A DNA stretch of 59,328 bases. It comes from Elusimicrobiota bacterium. GTDB taxonomy: Bacteria > Elusimicrobiota > Elusimicrobia > F11. Location: the NCBI GenBank assembly GCA_003140895.1, contig PLLH01000035.1:1-59328 (forward strand). The letters run 5' to 3'. Position numbers and translations under genes: made by a program. Position 1 is the stretch's first letter. Every line of letters starts with the position of its first letter. The notes below the pieces were generated by a model. It searched no databases, was not told the DNA's origin, and saw nothing but the letters and a program-made list of their open reading frames with translations. Shown piece by piece: positions 13,225-56,790 of this stretch.

Positions 13225-13246
13225 ATTTTCCTTTTAGGAGCTCCTT

Positions 13247-13510
13247 ATGGCCAAAGAAACAAAAGAAACACCGGAAGAACATCATATCATGATTGGCACC
13301 CTCGAGAAAAACGACCGAGACACCATTGTCGTCCAAATCCGTTCGTTCAAAGGCAAAGAGTATGTCGATGTCCGTAATCACTACAGGGATGCGGAAGACG
13401 AACTCAAGCCGACTCAAAAAGGAATCAGCATTGAAACGGGCCGGTATGCCGAACTGAAAGCCCTGTTTGACAAGATTCCTGACGCCATTTCAAAAGGCAT
13501 GGGCAGCTGA
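13247..13510 (+). CDS. PC4/YdbC-like small ssDNA-binding-fold protein
   Basis: 87 aa. The pattern ...IVVQIRSFKGKEYVDVRNHY...ELKPTQKGISI... resembles the bacterial PC4 (YdbC) family. AGGAG lies 6 nt upstream of the ATG. Confidence 0.6.
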   Translation: MAKETKETPEEHHIMIGTLEKNDRDTIVVQIRSFKGKEYVDVRNHYRDAEDELKPTQKGISIETGRYAELKALFDKIPDAISKGMGS

Positions 13511-13511
13511 T

Positions 13512-17456: not shown

Positions 17457-17459
17457 GCG

Positions 17460-18461: not shown

Positions 18462-18463
18462 AA

Positions 18464-19138: not shown

Positions 19139-19141
19139 CTC

Positions 19142-19867: not shown

Positions 19868-19964
19868 TGTTGCCGGAAGATTGTATCAGCCCACCTTCTG
19901 TATGTCAAACGAACACCGACGGATCAAGGGCACCAAAAGGCGGTGCCGCCGATGTCGGCTTGGG

Positions 19965-21526: not shown

Positions 21527-21713
21527 AAATTATTTTTTATTTTTAAATAAAACGTGTGACTTAAGTCACACCAGGGAAATCAAAAGAACACATATTCGCA
21601 TCTATAAATAGAGTTGAATTTATATTTATTTTAAAAAAATCAATTTAAATTACAAATCCGCTCAGCACCTGAATTAAATTAATTATTGAAAATGAACATT
21701 CCCCCCTATATCC
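21527..21713. promoter_or_regulatory. AT-rich divergent intergenic island (promoter region for the giant plus-strand gene and the minus-strand CpXC/cca/scpAB run)
   Basis: This is the longest non-coding stretch in the window. My hand count gives about 47 G+C in 187 nt (~25%), against visibly GC-balanced coding DNA on both sides. Confidence 0.6.
21554..21571. promoter_or_regulatory. Perfect 18-bp palindrome with a CRP-type core (TGTGA-N6-TCACA); candidate Crp/Fnr-family operator
   Basis: GTGTGACTTAAGTCACAC is identical to its reverse complement. The core half-sites match the classical CRP consensus. Confidence 0.5.
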
Positions 21714-27233: not shown

Positions 27234-27244
27234 GCGTTTTCTTT
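27208..27244 (+). terminator. Candidate intrinsic terminator embedded in the last codons of the giant ORF
   Basis: AAACGC[GGCAGCC-GCG-GGTCGCC]TAA-GCGTTTTCTTT. The inner 7-bp stem has one mismatch and one G-U. An outer AAACGC/GCGTTT pairing follows, then a T-tract that runs into the stop codon of the convergent gene. Confidence 0.35.
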
Positions 27245-28715
27245 ACTTCATTAGATCGTCGTAAATCGCTCTCTCCCGGAGGCTTCTGGGCAACTCCCCC
27301 CTCCGCCTCCACACCTCACTCAACGCCTCGTGCGCTCTTGGATCAAATGGATTGATGGCCATATAGTCCATTAAGAGCGAAACAGCCTCCCTGTCACCCG
27401 AAAGCCGGGCCAGTTCATAGTACGGAGTCCCATAATTCGGATTTTTATCGGTCGCTCGTTTCAGATAAGAAACAGCCGTATGGGGGTCTTCTAAAATTAA
27501 ACATGTCTTGGCCGCCTTGAGCAACACCACCGCATTGTCGGGTTCGTCTTTTAAGGCGCGTTCGTATTCGATGAGAGCCGCCGCCGGCTTATTACGCCGA
27601 CGCATTTGATCCCCCAATTGAACGCGGCCTTGAACATCCGCTCCAATCAACGCATTTTCCTCTACTCGTGAAAAACGAATTTCATCGGTCAACGCCCCCT
27701 TGGTTTTCTCCCATGTTTCTGTTTTTAACGCCTCTCTCCAATCCCATTCGAATTGCTCCAACGACATATTAAAAACCGAGTTGAAGGCCTCTTTAAACGG
27801 CAAACGCTGGGCCGCCTTCAGAAAACGGGCAAAGGTCGTTGGTCCCGCTTTCTTGATCAATTGTGATACCGCGTACGAGACTTCCGAAAATGCCAACGAC
27901 ACTTCTTCTTGGTTCTTTAAGTACACCATCGAAGGCGACATCCGCGCAAACGAAATCAATTCATTTTTCTCAAGCGCTTCTTTTAATTTCATTTTTTGCT
28001 CCGGCGTGAGAAAAGAAGGGACGTCCATTCGGTACGCGTTTTCAAAATAGCGGGCGGTCCCCTCATGGAACCACAAGTCAACTTTCGAGCCGGACATTTC
28101 ATTCACGATGAGATGAACGTATTCGTGCGAGAGCGCGTCCAACCATCGGTATCCCAGAGGAAGCGCCCGCGGAGAAAGAATCATGAGACGATGGAACTTG
28201 CAGATGCCGATAGCGCCGGAGCGCTCCAATGTTTCCATGCTGAGCGTCGATGCCGCTGAAAACGACTCTTGCGTCGGGTAAATTTCCACCCGGATCCGTT
28301 CTTTCGGGCGATGCCCTAGAATTTTTTCCATTGTGGCCGACGATTGCTCTAAAACCGGCAAAGCGTAATCGGACAAAAAGGTTTGGTCAGCAGGAAGGAA
28401 CAGGGAAAACCGTTCAGAATCCCGTCGGACAAACGAAGTTTGAAGAGGAATGAGCCGAGTCAAATACTCTTTCATCCAAGGAAACTGCCTCTGAGTGGGT
28501 TCATCCAAGGATTCCAGCGCCTTGGCGTAATCTCCTTTGGCGAGATAGGCGATCGCCAGCCCCTCTCGCTTCGGCGTCGCCGTTCCGGATTCCAACGCTT
28601 CGGAAACACTCGGAGATTGAGAACGATCGATTTCCCCGGGAAAAGATTCCAATTGATGCGCCGACGCCGGCCGCATCAGGAGAAAACCAAACAAGAGAAG
28701 GCCCTGCCGTTTCAT
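27243..28715 (-). CDS. Secreted MA-clan-like zinc peptidase domain (HExxH) fused to C-terminal TPR repeats
   Basis: Signal peptide MKRQGLLLFGFLLMRPASA, HEYVH followed by WFHEGTARYFE, and TPR-like repeats at the C-terminus. The track start is 28760. I prefer ATG 28715, 1 nt after the upstream stop. Confidence 0.7.
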   Translation of the reverse strand: MKRQGLLLFGFLLMRPASAHQLESFPGEIDRSQSPSVSEALESGTATPKREGLAIAYLAKGDYAKALESLDEPTQRQFPWMKEYLTRLIPLQTSFVRRDSERFSLFLPADQTFLSDYALPVLEQSSATMEKILGHRPKERIRVEIYPTQESFSAASTLSMETLERSGAIGICKFHRLMILSPRALPLGYRWLDALSHEYVHLIVNEMSGSKVDLWFHEGTARYFENAYRMDVPSFLTPEQKMKLKEALEKNELISFARMSPSMVYLKNQEEVSLAFSEVSYAVSQLIKKAGPTTFARFLKAAQRLPFKEAFNSVFNMSLEQFEWDWREALKTETWEKTKGALTDEIRFSRVEENALIGADVQGRVQLGDQMRRRNKPAAALIEYERALKDEPDNAVVLLKAAKTCLILEDPHTAVSYLKRATDKNPNYGTPYYELARLSGDREAVSLLMDYMAINPFDPRAHEALSEVWRRRGELPRSLRERAIYDDLMK

Positions 28716-28716
28716 A

Positions 28717-31700
28717 TTAGTCCGATAGCCGCTTATAATATTTCTGAATAATTTGCTCATACGCCTTGGGGTATTTTTCCTTTAACGCTTCCAATAACTC
28801 TTCACGAAATTCCCGAGGAGGACGATAATCCTCTAGACGAGGCAATTTGACGGGACCTTGATCCAACCCCTGGCCATTGCGAGAAGATCCCCTCCAAATC
28901 ACTTTGGGGCCCCCCAACGCCCCCCCCGCCCCGCCTTTTCGGCGCATCGACATTCCGCCCATTTGGTTCTGAGCCTCTCCCAGCGCATCCTGAGTATTTT
29001 GAAGATGCCGCAACGCGTTCTCTTCCGACGATTGCGCCTCATGACTTTCGAAAGAACCCAGATGGCGGCTGGCCTTGTCCATCTCTCCTTTGGCGTTCGA
29101 GAGAGATTGTGTCATGGAGATTCCCAAGCTGGCTGTTTTTTGCGACAAGGCCTGAAGGTTCTTCTTTAAGGCGGCGGTCCTTTTGGAGAGATCTGTTTGT
29201 TTATTCTCAAGCCCCGGGAACGCGCCGAGATCTCCTGATGAAAAGAGCCCCTTGGGAGGAGGGGACTTGCGCAACAGCTCCAAAATCTCACGTTCGTCTT
29301 TCTCCAACGACTCCGCCTCAGGCTGAAGGGACACCGGCGCGCTGGACGCTTTAATGCCATCGGAGGCCAACCCCATCTGCCGCACCACGCCTTCCAACAC
29401 ACCCACGCCCTCCTTGAGTCTGCCCGTCTCCATTTCATGCAAAACACCCTGCAGTGGGGCGATCTGATTGCGCAAAAGAGCGGCCGGCCCCGCGGGCACC
29501 GCGGGTTTGTTGGCAAACGAGTGCGTTCGTTCAATTAAACGCGCCTGGCGCTTCGCCAGCTGCCCCAAAAGAGTTTCCTGCTCTTTCATGAGAGCCGATA
29601 AGCGGCGCGTCTCCAGTTCCTGCGTCTTCGAAAGAAGCGTCCGTTCCTCGTCGATCACCGCGTTTAATTCCGCCTCTTGCTCCGTTATTTTTTTCGACAA
29701 TTCGCTGGCGGAGTTTTCCTCAACAAAGGAATCGTACGCTTTGGAAAGCTGGCTCTTCATTTTTTTGGCGGCTTCCAGAAATTTTTGCGCGAGCGAAAGC
29801 GCCTTTTTTGTGTCCCCCTGTTTCAGGGCCTCGGCAATCTGAGACAGAACGTCTTGCGACTCCTGAAGATTCAACGTCTTAACTCCCTCCTGATTGATGA
29901 AGTCGTCGGGCAACTCTTGAGGCATCTGCTGAACGGCGCGCGCCATGTCGGCCAACGTCCGTTGGGCTTCATTGATGAGATCGTTAATTTTGGCCATCAC
30001 GTCTTTGTTTTTGAGATCGGGCGCCGCGCTGAATTCCTTTAAGAGCTGTTCTCCAGCCTCTTGAAGCCGATCTCCCGCCTCAACCACATCCCGCGCTTTC
30101 TGATCTTTGCTCAACTTATGGGAAAGGGCCACCATTCGTTCAAGTTCAGACGACACGTCGGACAAATGAAACGAAGCCGCGGCCTTGTTGTCGGTCTGAA
30201 ACGCCGCTTCGGAATATTTCATGGGCCCCGCGTTCATGGCGGACAAATTCCCCTGAATGGACTTATGCTCCAACCAGACGCCGTAATCGGCCATCGGATC
30301 TTTTTCCATTTGGTTGACAAGGCGTTGAAGACTTTTTTCGAGGCCAAGGGAGTCGGACATCGCTTTATTGAGCGGCTCCATGAGGGAACGCAAGGAGGCG
30401 GAAGACGAATCCACGGACGCTTTGAGCGTGTTCACGTCCGCCAACAGATCCACGGCTTTTCCCCGCCACTCTTCCAGAACGGACTCCAACGCCGCGTGCG
30501 TTTTCTCAAAGCTCGCGATCTCGATCAGTCGCCAGGGGGTAAGGCTCTTGCCCGGGCCAGTCACGACATTCGCGTCGACCGCTTCCAAACGAATCTGAAT
30601 CACATCTCCCGGGCGAAATTTTTCTCCGCCCAAATCCCACTCAACCGTGGAAAGAACGGTTTCCCTGGGCGGATCAAAAAAGGCCACTTGCTTGGAACCA
30701 GAGAGCCCCCCGGATTTTTCCCACATAAGACGAACTTCAGAGACCCCGTAATCATCGGAGGCGTCAAACGTCAGCGGAAGCTTTTCTTTGTCCCCCACAA
30801 TCACATCATCGCTCGGAGACAACAGATGAATCACCGGCGGGCTGTCGGCTTGAACGTGAATCGGAAATTCCCCCACGCCAAGACCCGGGCGCCCGTTCTG
30901 CAAGTCCAAGGCGAACCGATACGTCCCGCTTTTCTCCAGCAAGAACGCCACATCCACGCTATTGTTTGATACGGTTCCCAACCGTTCCCGGCCGTCGGAA
31001 AATTGAACCAGCGCCTTGGCGACCGGCATTGAAAAATCAAGCGTCATGTGAACCTGTGTTCCCGCCAATCCGGATAATTCGAGCGACGACTGATGAGAAG
31101 CCGCCTTTTTCAGATAGGACGGCGGCGTTACAATCAATTCCGCCTTTTTCAATTGAAGGGGCTTCATCGGTCGAAGCACATATCGCGGGCTCCACTCTTT
31201 TTTCCATCTCACCTTGTAGCTGACCGGTTCAACGAGATTTCTAAGACGGAAAAAAGAATGATTCGCCGAAACAGACTCGGGCTCAAAAACCGTCCAATCA
31301 CGATGAGCTTTGATGGCCAGCTGCGGTCTCTCGATGGACGGGCAAAGAAGAGTCACTTGAATGACGGCGTCTTGCCCCCATTCCACGTTGGCGCTCCCGG
31401 GATTGACCCTTAAACAGGATTCAAGTGGACTCGTTGAAAACGGAAAATAAATCCGGGGGGTGAGTGGAAACACGTGAGGAAACGCGGCCCACAACGAACC
31501 GGCCACAATCACAACGAGACTATTAACAGCCAACGCCCTCCGCCACATCCACCGAGGACAACACGCCCACGGACGTTGCTGTTTAACGGTCGAGGCCGCC
31601 TCTCGCAGATACTCTTCGCGCAAACCGGAGGAGAGACCGGGGCGCTCTGTCTGAGAAGACAATTGAACCGCTAAAAACAGCGTATCTCGACGAAGAAGTT

Positions 31701-32001
31701 CGCCAGACCCCTGTTCTCTGGATCTGTTACGCCAGAGATTTTTCGATTGTTCCTTTATAGAAAACAACGTGAGCGGCAAGAACGCATGGAGAGCGAGGGC
31801 CCCGGCCAAAAGAAGCATTGCGATCCAGACGGTTTCCCTCACCCAGGACTCCATCACAAGCCATTGATCGAAACCGCTGAGGAGAAGGCAGGAACTCACC
31901 AGAAGAGGTATCGCGCGCGACATCCCCTTGAACAACAAGGACAGGAAAACGCAAAGCCTCGCTTTCCGCAGAAAGAGACGGATTTCAGGAATCGCGTTCA
32001 C
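28717..32001 (-). CDS. Large envelope protein, DUF4175-like architecture
   Basis: N-terminal TM helices, a central beta-rich region (...DASDDYGVSEVRLMW...), a long Q/L/A/E-rich helical C-terminal half, and the tail ...YEQIIQKYYKRLSD. The track start 32043 is GTG. GTG 32001 forms a GTGA overlap with the upstream stop, and ATG 31923 is another option. Confidence 0.65.
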   Translation of the reverse strand: MNAIPEIRLFLRKARLCVFLSLLFKGMSRAIPLLVSSCLLLSGFDQWLVMESWVRETVWIAMLLLAGALALHAFLPLTLFSIKEQSKNLWRNRSREQGSGELLRRDTLFLAVQLSSQTERPGLSSGLREEYLREAASTVKQQRPWACCPRWMWRRALAVNSLVVIVAGSLWAAFPHVFPLTPRIYFPFSTSPLESCLRVNPGSANVEWGQDAVIQVTLLCPSIERPQLAIKAHRDWTVFEPESVSANHSFFRLRNLVEPVSYKVRWKKEWSPRYVLRPMKPLQLKKAELIVTPPSYLKKAASHQSSLELSGLAGTQVHMTLDFSMPVAKALVQFSDGRERLGTVSNNSVDVAFLLEKSGTYRFALDLQNGRPGLGVGEFPIHVQADSPPVIHLLSPSDDVIVGDKEKLPLTFDASDDYGVSEVRLMWEKSGGLSGSKQVAFFDPPRETVLSTVEWDLGGEKFRPGDVIQIRLEAVDANVVTGPGKSLTPWRLIEIASFEKTHAALESVLEEWRGKAVDLLADVNTLKASVDSSSASLRSLMEPLNKAMSDSLGLEKSLQRLVNQMEKDPMADYGVWLEHKSIQGNLSAMNAGPMKYSEAAFQTDNKAAASFHLSDVSSELERMVALSHKLSKDQKARDVVEAGDRLQEAGEQLLKEFSAAPDLKNKDVMAKINDLINEAQRTLADMARAVQQMPQELPDDFINQEGVKTLNLQESQDVLSQIAEALKQGDTKKALSLAQKFLEAAKKMKSQLSKAYDSFVEENSASELSKKITEQEAELNAVIDEERTLLSKTQELETRRLSALMKEQETLLGQLAKRQARLIERTHSFANKPAVPAGPAALLRNQIAPLQGVLHEMETGRLKEGVGVLEGVVRQMGLASDGIKASSAPVSLQPEAESLEKDEREILELLRKSPPPKGLFSSGDLGAFPGLENKQTDLSKRTAALKKNLQALSQKTASLGISMTQSLSNAKGEMDKASRHLGSFESHEAQSSEENALRHLQNTQDALGEAQNQMGGMSMRRKGGAGGALGGPKVIWRGSSRNGQGLDQGPVKLPRLEDYRPPREFREELLEALKEKYPKAYEQIIQKYYKRLSD

Positions 32002-33674
32002 GAACCCCCGGCTTTCCCGGAGGGAGAGCGAGCCGGCGCCCACCTTTTAAGGATCTCGGGATGATCGGAAAAATCATAGACGAAAATACTGTATCCAATC
32101 ACCTTCCACGGTTTATAGTCCTTTAACCACGCGTACACATCTTTCCGCGTGTAATACGTCGACTGAAGGTGCGTTGCCGAAATGGCGAATTTGGTCGGTT
32201 GAAAACGCGGATCAGCCCGATCGTCCTCCCGGCCGCCAATCGGAATCGGGCCTAAATCCATATAGCGAATCCCATAGGCGTGAGGGTCTCCGACGCCAAA
32301 ATAACACAAGTAAATCCCTTTCTCGATATCCGACGGTTCCAACGCCTGCTTAAGCAATTTAAGTCCCTGCCCCCAATCGAGATTAGAATCCGTTAAATAA
32401 CGGACTCCGTTTCGAGGACCGCCCACGGCTTCGTTGAAGTAGGCGATGTAATGAGGTTTGACGGAAACACACGCAACGATCGACCAGCCGATAAGAAGTC
32501 CGCCCACCCAAATAAACCGGTTTGACAATTTGGAAAGTCCCACCGCGGCCGCCACAAATAGAAAGGGATAGACCGCCAAGATGTGCCGATGCCCAATCTG
32601 AACGGTGGACGCGCACGCCAAACAAAAGAAAACGAGGGGCGGAATACAAAGAAACGGGGACAGCACTATCTTTTTTTTGATGAACATCGCCAGTGAAATC
32701 CCCAAACCGATAAGGAGTGGAATCGGTGTTTTAATTAAAAAGACCGCCGGGAAATAGCCCAGCCATCCTGTGACCCGGTGATCTCCAAAGAAAAAGCTGC
32801 CGCGGCCCCGTTGATTCCGGAACATGGCTTCCTTCAATCCTTCCCAATAGATCGATAAATTTCCAAACCCATAAACAAACCACAACGTCAGAAAAGCGAC
32901 GGACACAAGACACAGAAAAGAGATTTGCTTCTTTCGTTCCATGAGAAAGGGCTCAGCCAAAAAGCGCTCTCCGTGACGAACCCGGCGGAGCCCCCTCCAT
33001 AAGAGAAGGGCTAGAACGGAGGGAAGAATGGCCACAGACATATGTTTACTGGCCAGACAAAGCCCCAATGAAATCCCCGCCAAAGCGGCGATCAAAAAGC
33101 TTTCTCCCAGAACCGAACACAACATAAAAAACGCCGAGAAGAATAAAGCGAACGCAAAGTCCGTCGTCACAACGGTGCCGTTGGCCAGAATAATCGGCGA
33201 AAAGCACCAGAAGACAAGAGCGTAGAGCGCCGCCTTCCCGCCGGCGGATTTCCTTACAAACCAGAAAAGAAAGCCCCCCATCAGCAGAGACAAGAGAAGC
33301 TGCATCAAACGTCCAGCGGTCAACAACGTGTCCGCGGACACATGGTTGTGATACAGAAAGCGATCCGCGAACGTATATTGATCCAGAGCGTTCCATTCCT
33401 GACGTACCCAAGCCGCGTCATTGATCGGAAGGCTTGAAGGGAGGACCAAGAGGGGAAGAGCCGCCCACATCTCGGCAAACGGCGGATGATGAAATCCGGC
33501 GAATCGAAAATCTCCTGTTTTGAGATAAATGGCGCCGGCGGTCAAATGAACCGGTTCATCGTATGTCGGCGAAAAAACCCGGATCGGTTCCAACGCCAAA
33601 AGAACATGAATCAGGCACAATCCGCCGGCAACGACAAAAAGAAGTCTTGTTTTTTGTTTTTTAATGTCTCGCAT
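31998..33674 (-). CDS. GT-C fold glycosyltransferase, PMT/ArnT (family 39/83)-like, paralog 2
   Basis: 558 aa. First-loop motif YDEPVHLTAG, at least 10 hydrophobic helices, and a C-terminal soluble domain with YLTDSNLDWGQGLKLLKQAL. Confidence 0.7.
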   Translation of the reverse strand: MRDIKKQKTRLLFVVAGGLCLIHVLLALEPIRVFSPTYDEPVHLTAGAIYLKTGDFRFAGFHHPPFAEMWAALPLLVLPSSLPINDAAWVRQEWNALDQYTFADRFLYHNHVSADTLLTAGRLMQLLLSLLMGGFLFWFVRKSAGGKAALYALVFWCFSPIILANGTVVTTDFAFALFFSAFFMLCSVLGESFLIAALAGISLGLCLASKHMSVAILPSVLALLLWRGLRRVRHGERFLAEPFLMERKKQISFLCLVSVAFLTLWFVYGFGNLSIYWEGLKEAMFRNQRGRGSFFFGDHRVTGWLGYFPAVFLIKTPIPLLIGLGISLAMFIKKKIVLSPFLCIPPLVFFCLACASTVQIGHRHILAVYPFLFVAAAVGLSKLSNRFIWVGGLLIGWSIVACVSVKPHYIAYFNEAVGGPRNGVRYLTDSNLDWGQGLKLLKQALEPSDIEKGIYLCYFGVGDPHAYGIRYMDLGPIPIGGREDDRADPRFQPTKFAISATHLQSTYYTRKDVYAWLKDYKPWKVIGYSIFVYDFSDHPEILKRWAPARSPSGKAGGS

Positions 33675-33678
33675 GGCG

Positions 33679-35340
33679 TTAGGAGGGCCTTCTCATGGAT
33701 TCCAGGGCTTCCAGAGCGCCCGGTTGATTGGAAAAGTCGTACACAAAAATGCTCTCTCCGACGACGCGTATGGGTTTAAACTCGCTTAACCAACGAAACG
33801 CGTCTTTATCCTCAAAGTACGTGCCCTGCAGGTTCGTGATCGAAATGGCCAATGTCGTGGGCTTCACGGAAGGGTTGCCGGTGTCGTCCCGATGTCCGGC
33901 GATGACGTCGGACCCCACATCCAAATACGTGATTCCCTCTGCGTGCGGATCGGCCACGCCGAAATAACTCAGATAAATCCCCCGGCTCACGTCCTCGTCG
34001 CTCAACTCGCGCCTCAACAACTTAAGTCCTTGCCCCCAATCCACGTTGGAATCGGTTAAATAACGGTATCCGTTCTTGGGACCGCCGACGAATTCATTGA
34101 AATAGGCGATAAAATGCGGTCGCACAAGAATTGTTCCGGCGGCATTCCAGAGAAGAAAACAGGGAACAAGCCACTTAAGTCTCCCGGTGATCGCTCCAAA
34201 CCCGAGACCCGCCAACACAATCACAAAAGGATAGATGGCCAAAATGTGCCGGTGGCCGATTTGAACTTTTGAAATGCACGCCAGAAGAAAATAGACCAGC
34301 GGCGGGATCCAAAGAGCGGCTGGAACCGATATCTTCTTCCTCATCATCAAGACAATTCCGACGACACACCCCGTCAAAAGTGGAATGGGCGTTTTGACTA
34401 AAAACGTAAATGGAAAATAGAGAAACCATCCGTTCACCCCATGGCGGCCCGCGAAGAAACTCGAACGGCCCGCTTGAGACCGAGTAAAAACGTTTTTGAG
34501 ACCGTCCCAAAACACATCCATTGAGCCCCATTGAAAAACACTTTTGACCGTCAGAAAGGCAACGAGGCAAACAACAACAGCGTACAGATAATTGATTTTT
34601 CGAAACGTTTTCTTTTGAACGACGACGTCCCAAAAAAGGACGGCCGCCAGACAAGGGAAGACTGCCACCGCCAAATATTTACTCGCCACGCAAAGTCCCA
34701 AACTAATGCCTGATCCCACAACGGTTCCCCACCCCCGTGTGAGGCCGCTCAAAAAAACAAAAAAGGAAAAGAAAAAGCAGGCAAAGGCGAGGTCGGTTGA
34801 AACGATTGTCCCGTGCGTCAAGAATGTCGGAGAAAACCCCCATAACACAAGAGTCACAAGAGCGGGAATCAGACCTCCCATCCGAAACGCCACCCAGACA
34901 AGAAAGAACCCCAAAAGGACGGAGAGAAGAAGCTGCATTTTCCGAGCGGCAGCCAACATCGCATCGGCAGGAACGCGGTTGTGATAGAAAAAAAGATCCG
35001 CGAACCGGTATTGATCAATAGAACGCCACCGTTGAGCGGTCCACCGCGGATCATTTTTAGGAATAATGGGATTCAAAAAAATCAACGGGATAGCGGCCCA
35101 CATTTCTCCAAAGGGTGGATGATCATATCCGTTGAATCTTGTCTCACCCGTCTTCCAGGCCACCAATCCCGCGGTCAGATGGACGGGTTCATCATAGGTC
35201 GGAGAAAAAGTTCGAATGGGCCCCAACCCCAACATCACATGGATGGCGGAGACTCCCATCGCCGCCAACAACAGGAGAGTTAAATGAACACGATTTTTTT
35301 GGAGGACCGGCGGAATTTGAACGGTGGATGAAAGCTTCAT
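33679..35340 (-). CDS. GT-C fold glycosyltransferase, PMT/ArnT (family 39/83)-like, paralog 1
   Basis: 553 aa, collinear with the neighbouring paralog (YDEPVHLTAG; YLTDSNVDWGQGLKLLRREL). ATGA overlap with the upstream stop. Confidence 0.7.
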   Translation of the reverse strand: MKLSSTVQIPPVLQKNRVHLTLLLLAAMGVSAIHVMLGLGPIRTFSPTYDEPVHLTAGLVAWKTGETRFNGYDHPPFGEMWAAIPLIFLNPIIPKNDPRWTAQRWRSIDQYRFADLFFYHNRVPADAMLAAARKMQLLLSVLLGFFLVWVAFRMGGLIPALVTLVLWGFSPTFLTHGTIVSTDLAFACFFFSFFVFLSGLTRGWGTVVGSGISLGLCVASKYLAVAVFPCLAAVLFWDVVVQKKTFRKINYLYAVVVCLVAFLTVKSVFQWGSMDVFWDGLKNVFTRSQAGRSSFFAGRHGVNGWFLYFPFTFLVKTPIPLLTGCVVGIVLMMRKKISVPAALWIPPLVYFLLACISKVQIGHRHILAIYPFVIVLAGLGFGAITGRLKWLVPCFLLWNAAGTILVRPHFIAYFNEFVGGPKNGYRYLTDSNVDWGQGLKLLRRELSDEDVSRGIYLSYFGVADPHAEGITYLDVGSDVIAGHRDDTGNPSVKPTTLAISITNLQGTYFEDKDAFRWLSEFKPIRVVGESIFVYDFSNQPGALEALESMRRPS

Positions 35341-39549: not shown

Positions 39550-41618
39550 GGCAATCCTTTTTTCTTTCGAAGAAATAATTCAACCGTCAGAAAGAGAAGA
39601 CCCAACAAAAGGAGGACCGGAGAATTCCAAACGAGCACTTTTTTCCCCACGTTTTGAGCCACGTCCGCGTGAAATTCATTGAGCGACGATTCCGTCACGT
39701 CTTCCGCGGTTAAAAACCGCCCCCCGGTTGCCTTCGCCATTTCGTTCAACAACGAAAAGTCAGGCCGCAAATCTTCCTCTTCATTATGGCTCTCTTTGAC
39801 CTGAACGTTGATTTTATCATCCCCGTAGACGTTTCCACCCCGGAACGCCCACGCTTTGATGGTAAACGCCCCCAATTGATCAGGTTTAAAAAGACAGGAA
39901 TAGACCCCCGTCGTTTCCTGGCGCGCCGGAAGCGGCCCTTTTTTACCGTCGGGAAGCGTCACCTCGACACGCACATCCACGCCGGAGAGAGGCTTGAAAT
40001 AATCGTCATACACCCAGATCCGGAGCGCCTGTTCTTCGCCTTCTTTAATATTTTTTTCGTCAAAGGCCATCCGAACCGGTTTAAACTCATCCGAATGCGT
40101 GAGCCAGAGCACCATGTTTTTCCAAAACTGCTGATAGCTGTCGAACGACAACGCGTTCTCTGATGGAATCATCGACCAACGCCAGGTGGTGCGGGTCGAC
40201 AGCGCTCCCACCCGCCCTTTTCCCACCCGCCATACCGTTAAGACCGGCGCTTCTTTTCCGTCGATCAACGCGGTTCCCAGCACCGTGGCGCCCGGCTTGA
40301 CACCGGGCAAAATCGTCAGGCCGTCCAACGGCGGAAGTCCCTCCCACATTTTTTTGTTCCTCTCGGGATTCTCATCCAACCGGAGAATCGGATGAGACAG
40401 CGCCTTCGGCACGAATCGAAACGTCTCCTCGGTTGTCTTGACCGGCATCGAACCGAATTGAACCGGGAGAAGTTCATTCGACCCGGGAAGCGCGTAATCG
40501 CTTCCGGCGCCGAAGACGACCGGCCCCCCCATCAAAAGAAAACTCCCGCCCCCTTCCACTTTCCGCCGGATGGCCTCCATGATCCCGGGCATGAGGCCGT
40601 ATTGGCGGTAGGAAAATTCTTCAAACACAACCAGGTCGAACGTGGGCATCTGCTGGACAAGCGCTTCTTGCGTCGGAAACGGAATCAGCGACAGTTCCGA
40701 ATCCGGAACCGACACGATATTCCCGGCGTTCCGTAAGATCACGAACGTCACCAACTCAACCGCCGGGTCCGCTTTAAATTGATGCCGGAGAAATCCGTAT
40801 TCGGGGCCCGGCTGGCCGCAGATATACAGAACTCGAAACCGGTCACGGCCGACGTCCAACGTGATATCCCTTTTATTATTCAAAAACGTCGCTTCACCGG
40901 CGTATTGCCCCACCTCGACGGTCAAATTCTTTGTTCCGATGCGGGGTGGCGTCCATGAGAAGTTGACCGTTGTTTCGGCTTCATGATCGGTCACGTGAAT
41001 TTGTTGCAGTGAAAGAACGTCATCTCCGTCCCGAAGCTTCACGGAAATATCTTTCCCTTCAAATCCGGTGGCCGCGATCGTCGCGGCGAGCGAGGTTTGA
41101 ATATTCTTGAAGGCGAAAGGCGGCGCTTGAATATGACGAACGGCAATGTCTTTGAACATCTGTTTATTCCCAAGCCCGATCAACAGCAACGGGCGTCCGG
41201 CCGCCGCGGCGGCCGACACCGGGTCGCCTGATCCCACCTGGCGGCCATCCGTTAATAGAACGGCGCCCCGAAACCGGTCTTCCCCAAGAACGGTTTTAAG
41301 AGCCGACGCCATGTCCGTTTTTGAACCTGTTGCTTCCAGTTTTTTCACGTCCGCCTCGGTTTTCAATTCCGTCACTCGATCGGAGAAGGAAAAAAGTTGC
41401 GTTCGAGGGAAGGACTTGCGCACCATCGGCAGGAGGCGTTGGGCGGCGGCCAGCCGCATCTCCTGATCCTGAACGCGCATGCTGCGAGACGTATCCACAA
41501 GAACGGCCCAAGCGGACGGAAGGCTCGGATCGGGACGCGTGACCACCGGTTTCATCATGAGAACGGCGGCCACGATGAAAAAGAGACCGCGAAGAACCCA
41601 AAGAAGTTTATTTGTCAT
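39546..41618 (-). CDS. Membrane-anchored VWA-like / class-I-glutamine-amidotransferase-like protein (Bat-cluster type)
   Basis: 690 aa. N-terminal TM, VWA-like start AVLVDTSRSM...LLTDGRQ, the central motif FDLVVFEE...VEGGGSFLLMGG, and a C-terminal TM. Confidence 0.65.
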   Translation of the reverse strand: MTNKLLWVLRGLFFIVAAVLMMKPVVTRPDPSLPSAWAVLVDTSRSMRVQDQEMRLAAAQRLLPMVRKSFPRTQLFSFSDRVTELKTEADVKKLEATGSKTDMASALKTVLGEDRFRGAVLLTDGRQVGSGDPVSAAAAAGRPLLLIGLGNKQMFKDIAVRHIQAPPFAFKNIQTSLAATIAATGFEGKDISVKLRDGDDVLSLQQIHVTDHEAETTVNFSWTPPRIGTKNLTVEVGQYAGEATFLNNKRDITLDVGRDRFRVLYICGQPGPEYGFLRHQFKADPAVELVTFVILRNAGNIVSVPDSELSLIPFPTQEALVQQMPTFDLVVFEEFSYRQYGLMPGIMEAIRRKVEGGGSFLLMGGPVVFGAGSDYALPGSNELLPVQFGSMPVKTTEETFRFVPKALSHPILRLDENPERNKKMWEGLPPLDGLTILPGVKPGATVLGTALIDGKEAPVLTVWRVGKGRVGALSTRTTWRWSMIPSENALSFDSYQQFWKNMVLWLTHSDEFKPVRMAFDEKNIKEGEEQALRIWVYDDYFKPLSGVDVRVEVTLPDGKKGPLPARQETTGVYSCLFKPDQLGAFTIKAWAFRGGNVYGDDKINVQVKESHNEEEDLRPDFSLLNEMAKATGGRFLTAEDVTESSLNEFHADVAQNVGKKVLVWNSPVLLLLGLLFLTVELFLRKKKGLP

Positions 41619-41629
41619 AACGATTCACG

Positions 41630-44446
41630 CTAATATCCCAATTTACGTTCGATAAACGGTTGATGGATCGCGTCCCGTTTGTAGGTTCCAGTCAAACTAA
41701 AGTAAATGACGTTGACCGTGAGTTTGAACGAATCCCACCGCTGGGGTTCCCCCCCGGGTTCGCACACAAAAGTGTATTGGCCCAATTGATCGCGCATCCA
41801 GGCCCCCAGTAAATCGTTGGGGCAATAAATGACCGCGGTCCGGGCTTCGCCGCCCCGCCCGCCGATGTCCAACCCCTCCAGCGTGTTTTCCGAAATCCGC
41901 CGGCCGCCGACATTTCTCAACAAAAAGAAGGAACGAAAGATCGGATGATCGAGCGGAAGTTTTTGAAATGTTTTATCAGGAAAAAGCTCCGACATCAGTT
42001 TCCGAACCGATTGGCCGAAGGGCCCGTTTTTATCGGCCAAGGTATCGTCGAAAAAGACAAAACCGCCGCGTTCAATGAATTGCTTAAGTCTGTTTTTCTC
42101 TTCTCCGGAAAAGGGCAACACCGCGTTCCCCTTCACGATCAGGAACGGAGATTCGAAGAGAGCGGAGTCCCGGAGCGTCACGACTTTCCGATCGGCGACG
42201 AGAGGGATATTGGTCATCGACTGAAGCATCTCAAAGATTTTCTCGTGAACCGATGGATACGGATCCCATGCCCCATCGTATTTGAGCTGCGTATAGACAA
42301 ACGCGTTCGCGGTGCCTCCCACACTCGGCGAAGGAAAAAGGGGACAGAGGAGGAGTAATACCGCCGCTCCTCGCACGGCGCGCCAGCGTTCAAACGTCCA
42401 GGAGAGAGCCGTCTCAACCAGGAAGAAGAGGATCAGAAGAACAAGAAGAACCTTCGTCAAATCCCATCCTTGAAGAGCGGAGAGGATGCGTTCCGGCGTG
42501 TTGCGCTGAACCGACATGACCGTCACGGAGGACCGGGGAAAAATAGTTTTCAGTTCTCCCTCCGTGACACGCGTTAAATCTCCCTCCCGGCCAGCGTCTT
42601 TGATATGTACCGCCACAAATAAATCGGATTCTTTTCGCTCCGTTCGAATCCGGTAGAGCCCGGGAACCGATGGGGTGGGCCCTTCCATGAGGCCATCCTC
42701 ATCAACCCGACCCCCGCTCACAGAGCCGTCCGGAGAAACGACGGACAGGCGCTGCACCCCAGGGGCCAGCCGAACCCGAATGGGTTCCCCGACAAATCCG
42801 TTTAAGGAGGATTCCTCTCGTGACGGATCCGCCAAGCGGGACAGGAGCTCCCGCATGAGCGGAGCAAACAAGGGTTTGGTGGGAAAATTGGACCAATCCC
42901 GGTCCACCGTCGTCGACAAACAGAGAACCGTTCCCTTTCCATATCGTTTCAGGAAAAGAAGCGGCGACCCGTTTTTTAATTTCAACAAAACCTCAGTGGA
43001 AGAATCCGGTTCGAGCGGCGCGTATTGGCTCACTCGCGCCTCAGACCACTCAAACTCGTCCAGACCCGTCACGTCTGAGAGGAAAGATTTTTTAGAATCC
43101 GGAGATCCCAGCCCCGGCGCTTCCAGGGATTGGGAAGAAACAACGCTTTTTTTAAAATGGAACAACCCGAAGGGCGACGAGGGCGCCCCCGCCCATTTCC
43201 CCCCGGCTGTAAGAAACAGTCCGCCTCCTCCCTCAATCCACTTAAGCAGTTTTTCTTGCGTCTCAATGGGACCCAACGTATTCGCCAACACAATGACATC
43301 GAATTGATCCAGGGACACCATCGGCAGGGATTCCGGGCGAATGACTTGAATCGATTGAAGCCGCGGATCGCGCCGCGACTCCAGCGCCGACTTGAGGTAA
43401 TACGTCTCAGAATCAGACGGCGCCAAGCCGCCTTCACCGTCGACGATCAAAAGGCGAAACCCTTTGGACATCCGGCCGGCCACATACATCACATCGTCAA
43501 ACGGAAGGGCGTCCGCCGTGAGGCTCACCTTGCCGGAATACACGCCGCCTTCCGGCAAACGCGCCTCCAGCGGAACCGTTTCCGTCTCATTCCCCGTGGA
43601 GGAAAGCTGGCCTTGTTCGATCACGCGCCCGTTCATTTCAAGGCGCCACACGTTGGCGGCGCCGGCGGAGGAATGGCGTCGGACAACGAACTGCCCTTTG
43701 AGCGTGCCTTCTTCTCCCGGCTGAAGGGACGCCTCGGCGATGCCGACGTTAGGGACTTTTTCCACCACCTCCGACACAAGAACATCGACATCCGGGTCAT
43801 ACCCGTCCCAACGGCCGCCCGCCTCAAGCCCTTTCAACCATCCGTGCCGCGCGTTGTCCGATAAAATAAGAAGCGACCGCCGGCCGCGCGGTGCGTTGGC
43901 CAACAAGCTCATCCCTGATTTAAGAGCCGGCAAAATATCCGTTCCGCGAGGAAGGACCGTCAACTCATCGACGGCGGATATCAGTTTGGCCCGGTCCGTG
44001 GTGGGCGCCCATTCTTTGTCGATCTGATTGGACGTGGAGACCAACCCAACGCGGGTGGAAGGCGGGAGCGCCCGCAACACGGCTTTGAATTCGTCTTGGG
44101 CCATTTCCAACGCGGACCGCCCCGCTGACACCGCCCCCATCGACGCCGAGACGTCCATGAGAACCACCAGCGTGGATTCGTCCGATTTGGATTTAAACGG
44201 GCTTCCCCCATGAAAAACAGGACGCGTAAAAAACAGGATCAGGAAGAAGAAGAGGAGAGACCTGAGAACCAACAAAAGTATTTCCCTCAACCGTTTCCTC
44301 GGCATGAACGATTGGTGGGCTTGTTTGAGCCATTCAATATGGCTGAACACCATTTTTTTAGGTTTTTTCTTAAACAGGAAATGAAGAACCAAGGGAATGA
44401 ACCCCAGAGGAAGCGCCCAGAGGAAAAGAGGACTGAGGAACGTCAC
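41630..44446 (-). CDS. BatA_N double-TM + VWA + GATase-like protein fused to a C-terminal DUF4159-like module
   Basis: The N-terminus (from GTG 44446) TFLSPLFLWALPLGFIPLVLHFL is BatA_N-like. VWA start VVLMDVSASMG, then FDVIVLAN...IEGGGGLFLTAGG, an internal TM plus a signal-like stretch near aa 670-715, then FVYTQLKYDGAWDPYP...FLIVKGN...ERGGFVFFDD (DUF4159-like). The track start is GTG 44464. GTG 44446 gives a GTGA overlap. Confidence 0.7.
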   Translation of the reverse strand: MTFLSPLFLWALPLGFIPLVLHFLFKKKPKKMVFSHIEWLKQAHQSFMPRKRLREILLLVLRSLLFFFLILFFTRPVFHGGSPFKSKSDESTLVVLMDVSASMGAVSAGRSALEMAQDEFKAVLRALPPSTRVGLVSTSNQIDKEWAPTTDRAKLISAVDELTVLPRGTDILPALKSGMSLLANAPRGRRSLLILSDNARHGWLKGLEAGGRWDGYDPDVDVLVSEVVEKVPNVGIAEASLQPGEEGTLKGQFVVRRHSSAGAANVWRLEMNGRVIEQGQLSSTGNETETVPLEARLPEGGVYSGKVSLTADALPFDDVMYVAGRMSKGFRLLIVDGEGGLAPSDSETYYLKSALESRRDPRLQSIQVIRPESLPMVSLDQFDVIVLANTLGPIETQEKLLKWIEGGGGLFLTAGGKWAGAPSSPFGLFHFKKSVVSSQSLEAPGLGSPDSKKSFLSDVTGLDEFEWSEARVSQYAPLEPDSSTEVLLKLKNGSPLLFLKRYGKGTVLCLSTTVDRDWSNFPTKPLFAPLMRELLSRLADPSREESSLNGFVGEPIRVRLAPGVQRLSVVSPDGSVSGGRVDEDGLMEGPTPSVPGLYRIRTERKESDLFVAVHIKDAGREGDLTRVTEGELKTIFPRSSVTVMSVQRNTPERILSALQGWDLTKVLLVLLILFFLVETALSWTFERWRAVRGAAVLLLLCPLFPSPSVGGTANAFVYTQLKYDGAWDPYPSVHEKIFEMLQSMTNIPLVADRKVVTLRDSALFESPFLIVKGNAVLPFSGEEKNRLKQFIERGGFVFFDDTLADKNGPFGQSVRKLMSELFPDKTFQKLPLDHPIFRSFFLLRNVGGRRISENTLEGLDIGGRGGEARTAVIYCPNDLLGAWMRDQLGQYTFVCEPGGEPQRWDSFKLTVNVIYFSLTGTYKRDAIHQPFIERKLGY

Positions 44447-45330
44447 AGGCGCGCCGACCTCCACGACAAATACGCTCCCAATCCTTTATCGAACGGAGTA
44501 TCCGTGGTGAGAAAATGATAATCCAATCCGGCGCTTCGAAAAACGTGAGCCAACGTCGCCAATTTTTCTTGAACAAGGCGCTGATACGCCGCTCGAATCA
44601 CATCCGGATCGGATTGAAGCGTTTCACCCGTCTCCACATCTTCAAACACAATCGGCCCCGAGAAAGGCAAGTCTCGTTCGGCGGGGTCGAACACGTTCAA
44701 AACAATGACCTCGTGTTTCCGGGCGTGAAGGGCCAAGAGCGTCGACACGGTTTTCTCGGAGTCGGCCATGAGATCGGAGATCACAATCAACATCGATCGT
44801 TTCCGAGAAAGAGGCCCCACTGAATCCGCCAAGGCCGACACGTTCCAAATTCCCTGCGGCTGAACAGACTCCAACGAGGCGAAAAAAGGGTCCAGATGAG
44901 ACCGGGAGCTGTTGGCCTGCAAAACAGTTCCTCGAGATAAAAGACCCACCCCATCCCGCTGAGAAATGAGGAGATACCCCAACGCCGCCGCCAGCGTCTT
45001 GGCGTAATCCAGTTTGCTGAGACGCCCCCCCCACGAACATCCCATGGACGCCGAATCATCCAACAAAATCATCGAGGCCATGTTGGTCTCTTCTTCGTAT
45101 TTTTTGATCACGAGCCGGTCGGTGCGGCCAAACGCTTTCCAGTCGATTCCCTTTAAATCGTCTCCGGGATGATACGCCCGGTGTTCGGAAAAATCCTGGG
45201 AGTTTCCGTGGATGGGATTTTCATGATGGCCGGAATAAAGGCCGTCCAAAATGCGACGGGCCCGGAGTTGGAGGTTCCCCAACTGAGCGATGACAACGGG
45301 GTCGAGGGGTGATGGGTGTTGAGAATTCAT
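44443..45330 (-). CDS. DUF58 family protein (MoxR-associated, VWA-like)
   Basis: The core ...GNSQDFSEHRAYHPGDDLKGIDWKAFGRTDRLVIKKYEEE...ILLDDSASMG is typical of DUF58. The track start 45348 is TTG. ATG 45330 is preferred. Confidence 0.85.
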   Translation of the reverse strand: MNSQHPSPLDPVVIAQLGNLQLRARRILDGLYSGHHENPIHGNSQDFSEHRAYHPGDDLKGIDWKAFGRTDRLVIKKYEEETNMASMILLDDSASMGCSWGGRLSKLDYAKTLAAALGYLLISQRDGVGLLSRGTVLQANSSRSHLDPFFASLESVQPQGIWNVSALADSVGPLSRKRSMLIVISDLMADSEKTVSTLLALHARKHEVIVLNVFDPAERDLPFSGPIVFEDVETGETLQSDPDVIRAAYQRLVQEKLATLAHVFRSAGLDYHFLTTDTPFDKGLGAYLSWRSARL

Positions 45331-45360
45331 GATGAGCAACTCGTTCAACTTTTGTTAAGT

Positions 45361-45434
45361 CGGGGGCGTCGGGCGGGTCTGGTGAAGCGACTCAACAACG
45401 TATGGAGCGAAACCAGATCCGCCCGACGCCCCCG
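45361..45434 (-). promoter_or_regulatory. Long GC-rich intercistronic stem-loop between moxR and the DUF58 gene
   Basis: Arms at 45362-45383 (GGGGGCGTCGGGCGGGTCTGGT) and 45412-45433 (ACCAGATCCGCCCGACGCCCCC). They are complementary at 21 of 22 positions plus one flanking pair, with a 28-nt loop and no U-tract. Confidence 0.55.
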
Positions 45435-45438
45435 CTGG

Positions 45439-46437
45439 TTATTCTGGGATCGTGGTTAAAAGCTCGGCCAACACCTGATCGGCGGTGACGTTTTCGGCTT
45501 CCGCGCGGAACGATAGAACCAAACGATGCCGGAGCGCAGGCAACACCAGCGACTGAATGTCTTCCACCGATGGGCTCATTTGACCTTTCAGGAGCGCCCG
45601 CGCCTTCGATCCCAAGATAAGAGCTTGGGACGCCCGAGGTCCGGCTCCCCACGCCACCCATTTCTTGATGAACTCGGGAGCGTTGGGTTCCTGAGGCCGC
45701 GTGGCGCGCGCCAAACGGACAGCGTAGTCGATAACAGAATCGGCGATGGGAACCCGGCGGACAATATCTTGAAGAGCCCGGATCTCCTCTGCCGACAGGA
45801 TTGGTTTAAGTTCCGGAGCCGCGCCCTTGGTCGTCTGCTCCACGATGAGTTTCTCCTCATCAAACGTGGGATAGCCGATGTTGATCTGGAATAAAAATCG
45901 GTCCAGTTGGGCCTCAGGAAGAGGATAGGTTCCTTCCTGCTCAATGGGGTTTTGCGTGGCCAGCACGAAAAAAGGCTCCGGTAGCGAATAGGTTTGCCCC
46001 CCCACCGTCACTTTTTTTTCCTGCATGGCCTGAAGAAGGGCCGCCTGCGTTTTGGGAGGCGTCCGGTTGATTTCGTCCGCCAAAACAACGTTCGCGAAAA
46101 TAGGACCCGGCAAAAATTTAAAAAGGCGTTCGCGGGTGGTTTTGTCTTCCTGAATGACTTCGGTCCCGGTGATGTCGGAGGGCATGAGGTCGGGCGTGAA
46201 TTGGACCCGGTTGAACTTCAGATCCAACGTTTGGGCCAACGTCGAGACAAGGAGCGTTTTGGCCAGGCCCGGAACTCCGACGATCAAACAATGGCCCTGG
46301 GCAAAAATCGACAGCAGCAATTCTTCCACCACCTGGCTTTGACCGACGATGACCTTGGAAATTTGCCCCTTGATGAGTTTGTCGGCTTCGGTAACCTTGC
46401 GGGCCAACTCGATATCGGAACTTTTTAATGAAGTCAC
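45439..46437 (-). CDS. moxR: MoxR-family AAA+ ATPase
   Basis: GHCLIVGVPGLAKTLLV (Walker A), VLADEINR (Walker B) and overall AAA_3 layout. 332 aa. GTG start with GAGGAG 7 nt upstream. Confidence 0.95.
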   Translation of the reverse strand: MTSLKSSDIELARKVTEADKLIKGQISKVIVGQSQVVEELLLSIFAQGHCLIVGVPGLAKTLLVSTLAQTLDLKFNRVQFTPDLMPSDITGTEVIQEDKTTRERLFKFLPGPIFANVVLADEINRTPPKTQAALLQAMQEKKVTVGGQTYSLPEPFFVLATQNPIEQEGTYPLPEAQLDRFLFQINIGYPTFDEEKLIVEQTTKGAAPELKPILSAEEIRALQDIVRRVPIADSVIDYAVRLARATRPQEPNAPEFIKKWVAWGAGPRASQALILGSKARALLKGQMSPSVEDIQSLVLPALRHRLVLSFRAEAENVTADQVLAELLTTIPE

Positions 46438-56754: not shown

Positions 56755-56790
56755 AGAAATTCACTATAGAACTTTTGCAGCGCATTACGA

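Follow-up and report, generated by a model that had tools for sequence, protein, structure and literature searches.

A MoxR/DUF58/VWA operon of an Elusimicrobiota bacterium with a lineage-specific cassette of four GT-C glycosyltransferase genes

We analyzed a stretch of 59,328 nucleotides (nt) from an Elusimicrobiota bacterium (GCA_003140895.1, contig PLLH01000035.1, positions 1 to 59,328), hereafter the window, and focused on an operon that combines a Bat-like MoxR/DUF58/VWA gene set with four genes for GT-C glycosyltransferases. Ten consecutive minus-strand open reading frames (ORFs) occupied positions 27243-46437, with moxR (46437) first and an MA-peptidase/TPR gene (27243) last. The closest homologs of three window proteins belonged to metagenome-assembled genomes of Elusimicrobia/Elusimicrobiota, with 61% identity at best. 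From first to last, the ten genes are listed below, with lengths in amino acids (aa) and E-values of the domain matches.

45439..46437, minus strand: MoxR-type AAA+ ATPase, 332 aa, cytoplasmic (Pfam AAA_3 1.4e-64, AAA_lid_2 1.2e-14)
44443..45330, minus strand: DUF58 protein, 295 aa from ATG 45330, alternative start TTG 45348 (Pfam DUF58 3e-42)
41630..44446, minus strand: fusion of a BatA_N double-transmembrane (TM) anchor, VWA and DUF4159, 938 aa (BatA 9e-14, VWA_2 1e-14, DUF4159 3e-34)
39546..41618, minus strand: bitopic periplasmic GATase1_like protein, 690 aa (Pfam GATase1_like; weak VWA, Filamin and CARDB)
37477..39549, minus strand: TMEM260-like GT-C enzyme with C-terminal TPR, copy a, 690 aa (PF11028 2.7e-22, and TPR)
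35337..37490, minus strand: TMEM260-like GT-C enzyme with C-terminal TPR, copy b, 717 aa (PF11028 1.7e-22, and TPR)
33679..35340, minus strand: ArnT/PMT-like (GT39/GT83-type) GT-C enzyme, 553 aa (50% identity to the adjacent paralog)
31998..33674, minus strand: ArnT/PMT-like GT-C enzyme, tandem paralog, 558 aa (PMT_2 4.8e-07; ten hydrophobic segments)
28717..32001, minus strand: DUF4175 protein, 1094 aa (Pfam DUF4175 2e-16; TIGR02302 weak, NCBIfam)
27243..28715, minus strand: secreted Peptidase_MA_2-like protein (HEYVH) with C-terminal TPR, 490 aa, alternative start 28760 (Peptidase_MA_2 4e-10, TPR_14 1e-11)

An earlier note on this DNA had described ten minus-strand genes with near-zero spacers. 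We re-derived every junction from the candidate start codons, each with 20 nt of upstream sequence, and the results matched that description. All junctions lie on the minus strand.

moxR to DUF58 gene: spacer of 90 nt (TTG 45348) or 108 nt (ATG 45330)
DUF58 gene to BatA gene: GTGA overlap, GTG 44446 with GGAGG upstream
BatA-DUF4159 gene to GATase1_like gene: gap of 11 nt
GATase1_like gene to TMEM260-like copy a: TTGA overlap of 4 nt, 39549/39546
TMEM260-like copy a to copy b: 14-nt overlap, 37490/37477
TMEM260-like copy b to first ArnT/PMT-like gene: ATGA overlap, 35340/35337
first to second ArnT/PMT-like gene: 4 nt, 33679/33674
second ArnT/PMT-like gene to DUF4175 gene: GTGA overlap, 32001/31998
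DUF4175 gene to Peptidase_MA_2/TPR gene: 1 nt, 28717/28715

GAGGAG was found upstream of the moxR start codon (GTG 46437). A consensus scan revealed no excess of promoter- or terminator-like sites inside 27243-46437 over shuffled sequence, and an Rfam scan of the window gave no match. From the overlaps it is reasonable to infer that the ten genes are co-transcribed and translationally coupled.

Profile hidden Markov model (HMM) searches with Pfam and NCBIfam upheld all family calls of the earlier note, with the first ArnT/PMT-like gene placed by paralogy and an AlphaFold2 (AF2) model. The AAA_3 match of MoxR spans the full-length profile, and moxR is adjoined by the DUF58 gene and, third in order, the VWA gene, indicating the MoxR-proper type with DUF58/VWA partners. 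No hydrophobic or TM segment was detected in the DUF58 protein by hydropathy. The BatA-DUF4159 fusion matched PF07584 (9.4e-14) and TIGR02226 two_anch (1.9e-12), and its VWA domain carries the MIDAS motif DVSASM. BatA/VWA and DUF4159 are fused in the window and its close relatives (surveyed loci L001, L005, L088 and L090) and are separate genes in most other loci (L002, L003, L087 and others); a signal-peptide-like hydrophobic segment is retained at the joint of the window fusion. The DUF4175 protein has three N-terminal TM segments followed by about 900 aa, predicted to be periplasmic, with Ig-like and long helical/low-complexity regions and a weak, sub-threshold Pfam match to Big_7. The N-terminus of the Peptidase_MA_2/TPR protein is signal-peptide-like.

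The two TMEM260-like copies scored 79.9 and 80.5 bits against PF11028 (the renamed DUF2723), for which the cut-off is 24.2, and TPR families matched their C-terminal parts (aa 570-680 and 635-665). Copy a aligned with the human TMEM260 structure 9rql across aa 9-447 (phmmer, E 7e-23), and its D30, within GDSGE, aligned with Asp52 of TMEM260, which has been proposed to be catalytic (PMC10214176). The two copies are just 25% identical (BLASTP 1e-41) and are therefore old paralogs. The motif D-x-x-E...H-x-P-x-Y-P, which includes the D30 position, is kept in copy b and was invariant in 41/41 complete TMEM260-like copies. TMEM260 is a protein O-mannosyltransferase whose TPR domain selects folded Ig-like (IPT) domains, and its bacterial relatives receive a passing mention as 'distant homologs in bacteria' (PMC10214176); full-text literature searches found no functional study of bacterial TMEM260/DUF2723 homologs. 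The window copies resemble TMEM260 and the related GT-C/TPR enzymes TMTC1-4 in PF11028, the Asp52 equivalent, the H-x-P-x-Y-P loop and the C-terminal TPR. They differ from TMEM260 in being bacterial, in presumably using undecaprenyl-type rather than dolichol donors, and in having one to four paralogs in each operon.

The products of 33679-35340 and 31998-33674 are 50% identical over their full length and represent a recent tandem duplication. The former had no Pfam match. Its homologs are annotated as GT39/ArnT with PF13231/PF02366, and its AF2 model (mean predicted local distance difference test score, pLDDT, 95.2) gave GT-C proteins for all of the top 39 Foldseek matches, the first being ArnT 5ezm (7e-07, TM-score ~0.48), followed by ALG9 and AftA. 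Neither ArnT/PMT-like sequence matched any PDB sequence, so that the GT-C fold was shown by modelling instead. Together with PF11028 in the two TMEM260-like copies and PMT_2 in the second paralog, this model bears out the earlier assignment of all four enzymes to GT-C. YDEPVH is present in both paralogs, and DE...HPP was invariant in 12/12 complete copies. Because the motifs are invariant in all complete TMEM260-like and ArnT/PMT-like copies, we conclude that these paralogs are under selection as active enzymes. The pair resembles ArnT/PMT (GT83/GT39) in the PMT_2 match, the DE motif in the first periplasmic loop, and 9-10 TM segments with a C-terminal soluble domain; unlike ArnT/PMT, it shows no sequence-level match to solved structures and no arn-operon context, and the gene is tandemly duplicated here.

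The likeness to ArnT, a lipid A modifier, bears on what these enzymes may glycosylate. They could belong to a lipoglycan or glycolipid pathway and, instead of modifying proteins, extend a lipid-anchored glycan on the periplasmic face while the Bat-like scaffold assembles or positions an envelope polymer. Polyprenyl-phosphate-dependent GT-C enzymes have precedents on lipids, namely in mycobacterial lipomannan/lipoarabinomannan synthesis and in ArnT acting on lipid A, and among solved structures the GT39-like paralogs matched ArnT best, ahead of ALG9 and AftA. In a subclade of the clusters, represented by four surveyed loci, the GT-C block and DUF4175 are separated by an MGDG_synth/Glyco_tran_28_C (GT28) gene (L089 17982-19103; L112 13672-14781; L121 16258-17367; L162 17895-19034), a hint of a glycolipid connection; MGDG_synth/GT28 is a family of diacylglycerol glycosyltransferases making glycolipid anchors. 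The operon proteins also have no Ser/Thr-rich, acceptor-like region, as would suit a lipid acceptor. However, the TMEM260-like enzymes are similar to a proven protein O-mannosyltransferase (7e-23), whose TPR they retain (PMC10214176); most clusters, the one in the window included, have no GT28 gene; and the resemblance to ArnT does not go beyond the general GT-C fold (TM-score ~0.48). We therefore consider a lipid acceptor rather unlikely.

The fourth gene had been called 'VWA' in the earlier note. A weak N-terminal VWA domain is indeed present, but the GATase1_like domain (PF07090, former DUF1355; 25.8 bits, under the 27-bit cut-off) had been missed. The AF2 model (pLDDT 89.9) comprises, in order, a TM segment, a VWA-like domain (25-148), a CARDB-like sandwich (157-257), a GATase1-like alpha/beta domain (261-506), a filamin/macroglobulin-like sandwich (515-608), a small alpha/beta unit and a C-terminal TM segment. 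Ig-like domains are thus found in this protein, in the model and as weak CARDB/Filamin matches. Its profile matched the PDB sequences of GATase1-like 3rht (1e-16), BatB VWA 3ibs (7e-06), CARDB 2kl6 and filamin. In a Foldseek search of the PDB, the model ranked 6s7t_G, 8b6l_N and 6s7o_G first to third (E 6e-11 to 3e-10, probability 1.0), and an OST48 sequence search of the PDB confirmed all three as OST48/DDOST. The alignment spans about 420-440 columns and takes in all of the 410-residue target, from an alpha/beta domain and a beta-sandwich to the C-terminal TM segment and a short charged tail.

In the eukaryotic oligosaccharyltransferase (OST), the GT-C enzyme STT3 is accompanied by OST48 (Wbp1 in yeast), a luminal subunit that has a C-terminal anchor and no catalytic role. 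The match is suggestive because the GATase1_like gene runs into the beginning of a GT-C gene. The GATase1_like protein differs from OST48 in an extra N-terminal TM segment, a VWA domain and a CARDB-like domain, and in its GT-C neighbors, which are TMEM260/ArnT-like rather than STT3/PglB. Furthermore, the GATase1_like protein of other phyla occurs without GT-C neighbors, which is one reason why the match is no proof of homology. DDOST_48kD gave no Pfam match in the GATase1_like protein even at E<=10, and a literature search on the Wbp1/OST48 fold returned nothing. Presumably, the 'GIFT' domain of OST48 is common to GldG and IFT52.

Conservation of the arrangement was surveyed from both sides. 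The forward survey was anchored on the GATase1_like gene, which abuts the GT-C block, with an 8-sequence alignment as query and one genome per GTDB species, giving 80 loci; these were annotated with iterated HMMs from the window proteins, and L008 was assigned by inspection. In the window, and in nearly all 80 loci, the gene directly after DUF4159 encoded a GATase1_like membrane protein. A TMEM260-like gene came directly after GATase1_like in 14/16 informative named Elusimicrobiota/Endomicrobia loci. Relatives at 61% and 36% identity showed, by Pfam annotation, the order MoxR-DUF58-BatA-DUF4159-GATase1_like-TMEM260-like (two to three copies)-PMT_2-DUF4175. The fixed place that the earlier note had given the GT-C block, between the VWA/GATase1_like gene and DUF4175, is thus kept in relatives. 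The stop/start overlap at the GATase1_like-to-GT-C junction was repeated in the called genes of L001, L002 and L087. A Desulfobacterales relative had DUF4175-Peptidase_MA_2-MoxR-DUF58-BatA-DUF4159-GATase1_like and no GT-C gene, and a Myxococcales relative had DUF4159-GATase1_like alone. The DUF4175 and Peptidase_MA_2/TPR genes, which form the 3' end of the window cluster, stand at the 5' end in the Desulfobacterota and Entotheonella loci.

In the reverse direction, we selected three TMEM260-like homologs for their low identity (33-34%) and long contigs; in all three cases a MoxR-DUF58-BatA-DUF4159 cluster was present and GATase1_like directly preceded the TMEM260-like gene. With the TMEM260-like domain as anchor, a scan of metagenomes yielded 80 loci, 59 of them with enough upstream sequence. 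GATase1_like was directly upstream in 41/59, many with 4- or 8-nt overlaps, and 1-8 kb upstream with other genes between in 7/59, so that 48/59 were linked altogether. These results showed that most members of the TMEM260-like clade are tied to the cluster, but that the tie is not obligate. The GT-C block, which the earlier note had allowed might prove absent or unlinked in related clusters, was present and linked in 14/16 Elusimicrobiota loci and 48/59 metagenome loci, and so is no chance insertion.

Copy numbers varied: complete clusters held 1-4 TMEM260-like and 0-2 ArnT/PMT-like genes, and the duplicated ArnT/PMT-like gene is a feature that sets the window apart. Unrelated genes now and then stood inside the block (an IS200-type transposase gene, a CoA-transferase, a subtilase and a sensor kinase). 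In L020, a same-strand ORF of at least 2957 aa follows the GATase1_like gene (13045-21915). Lenient HMM searches and inspection of unassigned large polytopic ORFs revealed no hidden GT-C genes beside DUF4159/GATase1_like in other phyla; of ten such polytopic ORFs scanned with Pfam, four matched unrelated families (adenylate cyclase, P-type ATPase, LytB/UbiA and TrkH) and six gave no match.

The surveys also refute a chance arrangement or annotation artefact, that is, spurious ORFs or family calls with accidental spacing. Such an explanation could draw on the weak Pfam scores of the GATase1_like gene (25.8 bits against the 27-bit cut-off) and the PMT_2 gene, and on nothing more. Against it, each of the ten ORFs is backed by numerous full-length homologs, a high-confidence model or strong HMM matches, and the arrangement is repeated in dozens of independent assemblies. 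We give it hardly any credence.

Topology was predicted from hydropathy and the positive-inside rule. MoxR and DUF58 were predicted to be cytoplasmic. On the periplasmic side were placed the BatA VWA domain, after TM2; DUF4159, after a TM3/TM4 hairpin resembling a retained signal peptide; most of the GATase1_like protein, between its N- and C-terminal TM segments and with the tail RKKKGLP; and the DUF4175 region (~900 residues) together with the secreted MA-peptidase/TPR protein. The placement of the BatA VWA domain agrees with BatA-like BB0173 of Borrelia, whose VWA domain has been mapped experimentally to the periplasm (PMC5700661). By homology with TMEM260 (PMC10214176), the GT-C enzymes are predicted to expose their active-site loops and TPR domains to the periplasm as well. 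Since the same compartment is predicted for both, the GT-C enzymes and the Bat-like scaffold would be able to meet.

Gene content, gene order, tight junctions, conservation over deep divergence and intact GT-C catalytic motifs are directly seen. Building on these, our preferred reading, which we hold tentatively and at slightly short of an even chance, is that the operon is an Elusimicrobiota/Endomicrobia-specific MoxR-DUF58-BatA/VWA-DUF4159-GATase1_like-DUF4175 cluster with a fixed GT-C cassette, whose enzymes act with the scaffold and most likely glycosylate a protein component or client. MoxR and DUF58 would form a cytoplasmic ATP-driven module. The BatA VWA domain, DUF4159, the GATase1_like protein, the DUF4175 domain, the MA-peptidase/TPR protein and the TPR domains and active-site loops of the GT-C enzymes would lie at the periplasmic face of the inner membrane, where the TMEM260-like and ArnT/PMT-like enzymes would transfer sugars from polyprenyl-phosphate-linked donors. 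The acceptor would be a component or client of the scaffold, and a protein is the most likely one because TMEM260, the closest characterized relative, is a protein O-mannosyltransferase whose TPR domain selects folded Ig-like domains. The GATase1_like protein, with its apparently OST48-like domain order, its C-terminal anchor and its coupling to the first GT-C gene, would be the strongest candidate for a docking subunit without catalytic activity. The earlier note had argued for one machine; the synteny behind that claim stands, and the physical coupling, which it drew from synteny, was overstated.

Several observations weigh against our preferred reading. A TMEM260-like gene followed GATase1_like directly in 0/51 loci of other named phyla (Myxococcota, Nitrospinaceae, Brocadiia/Planctomycetota, Desulfobacterota, Entotheonella/Tectomicrobia and others). 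The Fisher p of ~1e-12 for 14/16 versus 0/51 marks a lineage-specific trait and not independent events, because the loci are related by descent, and the survey counts mostly reflect one ancient, retained event. The GT-C link is therefore no general property of Bat-like clusters, and the DUF4159/GATase1_like core appears to function without a neighboring GT-C gene, since the 51 loci lack an adjacent one. Within Elusimicrobiota, two loci had no GT-C block, with DUF4175 directly after GATase1_like in L053 and the giant ORF in its place in L020; L087 and L088 had no DUF4175 after the GT-C genes; and in 11/59 metagenome loci the TMEM260-like genes had no Bat-like gene nearby. No Ser/Thr-rich stretch was found in any operon protein, and no GT2 polyprenyl-phosphate sugar synthase or flippase was found among the window ORFs scanned (three ORFs of at least 170 aa, at 53256-53870, 55389-56078 and 56791-57438, lay outside the scan), the missing GT2 being what counts here. 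The likeness between the GATase1_like protein and OST48 is at fold level only (TM-score 0.39-0.42, root-mean-square deviation 11-15 A), and hhalign of a 65-sequence profile against human OST48 did not support homology (probability 1%, E 0.05). The OST48 match may reflect the class-I glutamine-amidotransferase-like superfamily that both share, in which Pfam has placed GATase1_like and DUF4159 on structural grounds (PMC4702930). Finally, everything beyond gene content has to be inferred.

Much of this would also fit co-expression without physical coupling, in which a single early insertion in Elusimicrobiota placed the GT-C cassette at the end of GATase1_like, where it has been kept because both gene sets serve envelope biogenesis under shared regulation, while the enzymes act on unrelated substrates. 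In its favor, the block is missing from equivalent clusters of all other sampled phyla; the variable copy number (0-4 TMEM260-like, 0-2 GT39-like), the 11/59 loci in which TMEM260-like genes stand alone, and the unrelated genes within the block (IS200-type transposase gene, CoA-transferase, subtilase) point the same way, and in Kiritimatiellia and Proteobacteria, outside the phylum, the close GT39-like relatives are not near Bat genes. However, the place right after GATase1_like and the recurring stop/start overlaps are kept down to ~28-35% identity, and the GATase1_like protein resembles OST48. In addition, L004 (9246-16903), which is not of Elusimicrobiota type, has the order DUF4159-GATase1_like-DUF2079-small GT2-PMT_2, apparently a second, independent juxtaposition of lipid-donor glycosylation genes with DUF4159-GATase1_like; we take DUF2079 to be a GT-C clan member. 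Mere co-expression thus seems doubtful to us. Sequence tools cannot separate it from either the lipoglycan pathway or glycosylation of a scaffold protein.

A further-reaching proposal, which we consider quite improbable, would make the GATase1_like protein a bacterial counterpart of OST48 and MoxR-DUF58-BatA-DUF4159-GATase1_like-DUF4175, in all carrier phyla, a periplasmic glycosylation/assembly holo-complex, with GT-C enzymes encoded in cis solely in Elusimicrobiota. If it were true, Bat-like clusters would serve to mature glycosylated envelope proteins or lipoglycans with the help of ATP, and there would be a hint of a bacterial origin for a eukaryotic OST accessory subunit.

MoxR-DUF58-VWA clusters occur in many bacterial phyla and give stress, aerotolerance or envelope phenotypes when mutated. 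The molecular function of Bat-like clusters is unknown (PMC3557215, PMC5700661). Like the Bat operons of Bacteroides, Leptospira (batA/B/D) and Borrelia (BB0170-BB0176), the window cluster begins with a MoxR AAA+ protein and DUF58, followed by BatA-type double-TM VWA proteins, and TPR occurs in both. Unlike them, it has no BatD or free-standing BatC/BatE (Pfam and NCBIfam on the ten products), its TPR domains are fused to GT-C enzymes or a peptidase, and it adds DUF4159, GATase1_like, DUF4175 and an MA-peptidase. The 'Bat-like' label of the earlier note therefore suits the BatA_N and VWA part, but the cluster is a DUF4159/GATase1_like/DUF4175 variant rather than a classical Bacteroides bat operon. 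It is closest to operons such as RL3499-RL3502 of Rhizobium leguminosarum, which are of the same broad subtype, with MoxR-DUF58 followed by membrane proteins; window proteins match TIGR02226 (two_anch) and the alpha-proteobacterial TIGR02302/DUF4175 family. By domain content, we presume that the two membrane proteins of RL3499-RL3502 are orthologous to window genes. The Rhizobium operon differs in having four genes and no glycosyltransferases. According to work cited in PMC5700661, RL3499-RL3502 mutants have envelope defects, which fits an envelope role of the window cluster.

Our literature searches found no paper on the function of DUF4159, DUF1355 or DUF4175, and full-text searches found none linking GT-C enzymes to Bat/MoxR clusters; a GT-C-carrying, lineage-specific variant of the MoxR/VWA cluster was thus not previously reported in the literature searched. 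An operon that joins the MoxR/VWA set with TMEM260 homologs yields a specific, testable hypothesis, namely periplasmic glycosylation of, or by, the Bat-like scaffold, and it points to candidate partners, among them the OST48-like GATase1_like protein, with Ig-like domains as potential acceptors. Should the link prove physical, a large envelope gene family of unknown function would gain a biochemical activity, and a new bacterial glycosylation system would have been described.

One further element lies within the operon, in the spacer between moxR and the DUF58 gene.

45362..45433, minus strand: GC-rich hairpin with a perfect 16-bp stem

RNA folding gave -56.6 kcal/mol (z = -6.1), and the hairpin has no U-tail and belongs to no Rfam family. 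It appears private to this genome, because the corresponding spacers of relatives are just 14-48 nt. It may be an element of mRNA stability or stoichiometry.

The operon is flanked by housekeeping genes (recA, xerC-like, thiolase, polA, scpAB, glycogen synthase, ftsK and rodZ). Immediately upstream are genes for a 467-aa protein and a dienelactone hydrolase, which the earlier note had thought might belong to the same unit. The 467-aa protein has a signal-peptide-like N-terminus, but its description as a beta-propeller found no Pfam match even at E<=10. Neither gene had a homolog in the other 84 loci (L001-L084); not being conserved neighbors there, they are probably not part of the unit, although with 41-42-nt gaps they may be co-transcribed with the operon here.

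On the other side, a plus-strand ORF of 1839 aa (21714-27233) converges on the 3' end of the operon. It encodes a coiled coil extremely rich in E, K, Q and R, and the region shows a strong A-over-T skew of ~0.38. No TM segment, signal peptide or Pfam match was found in it, and as a charged coiled coil without signal peptide or TM segment it was rejected as a glycosylation substrate. Beyond it, minus-strand genes at 13512-18461 encode a GalT-like uridylyltransferase, a glycogen/starch synthase, a DUF5693 protein and a polysaccharide pyruvyl transferase; none of these glycan-related genes is a polyprenyl-phosphate sugar synthase.

A CpXC-domain gene lies just past the coiled-coil gene, downstream of the operon (20885-21526, minus strand). 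CpXC-domain genes also directly follow free-standing TMEM260-like pairs in L104 (14121-14774) and L115 (13755-14390). A block of PgpA, CDP-alcohol phosphatidyltransferase, RodZ and LolA genes, with or without FtsK, was observed near the cluster in two distant relatives, L087 (17447-21339) and L088 (14406-20546). Its counterpart in the window lies at 54863-59318, about 8 kb upstream of moxR, which suggests a wider conserved synteny of envelope genes.

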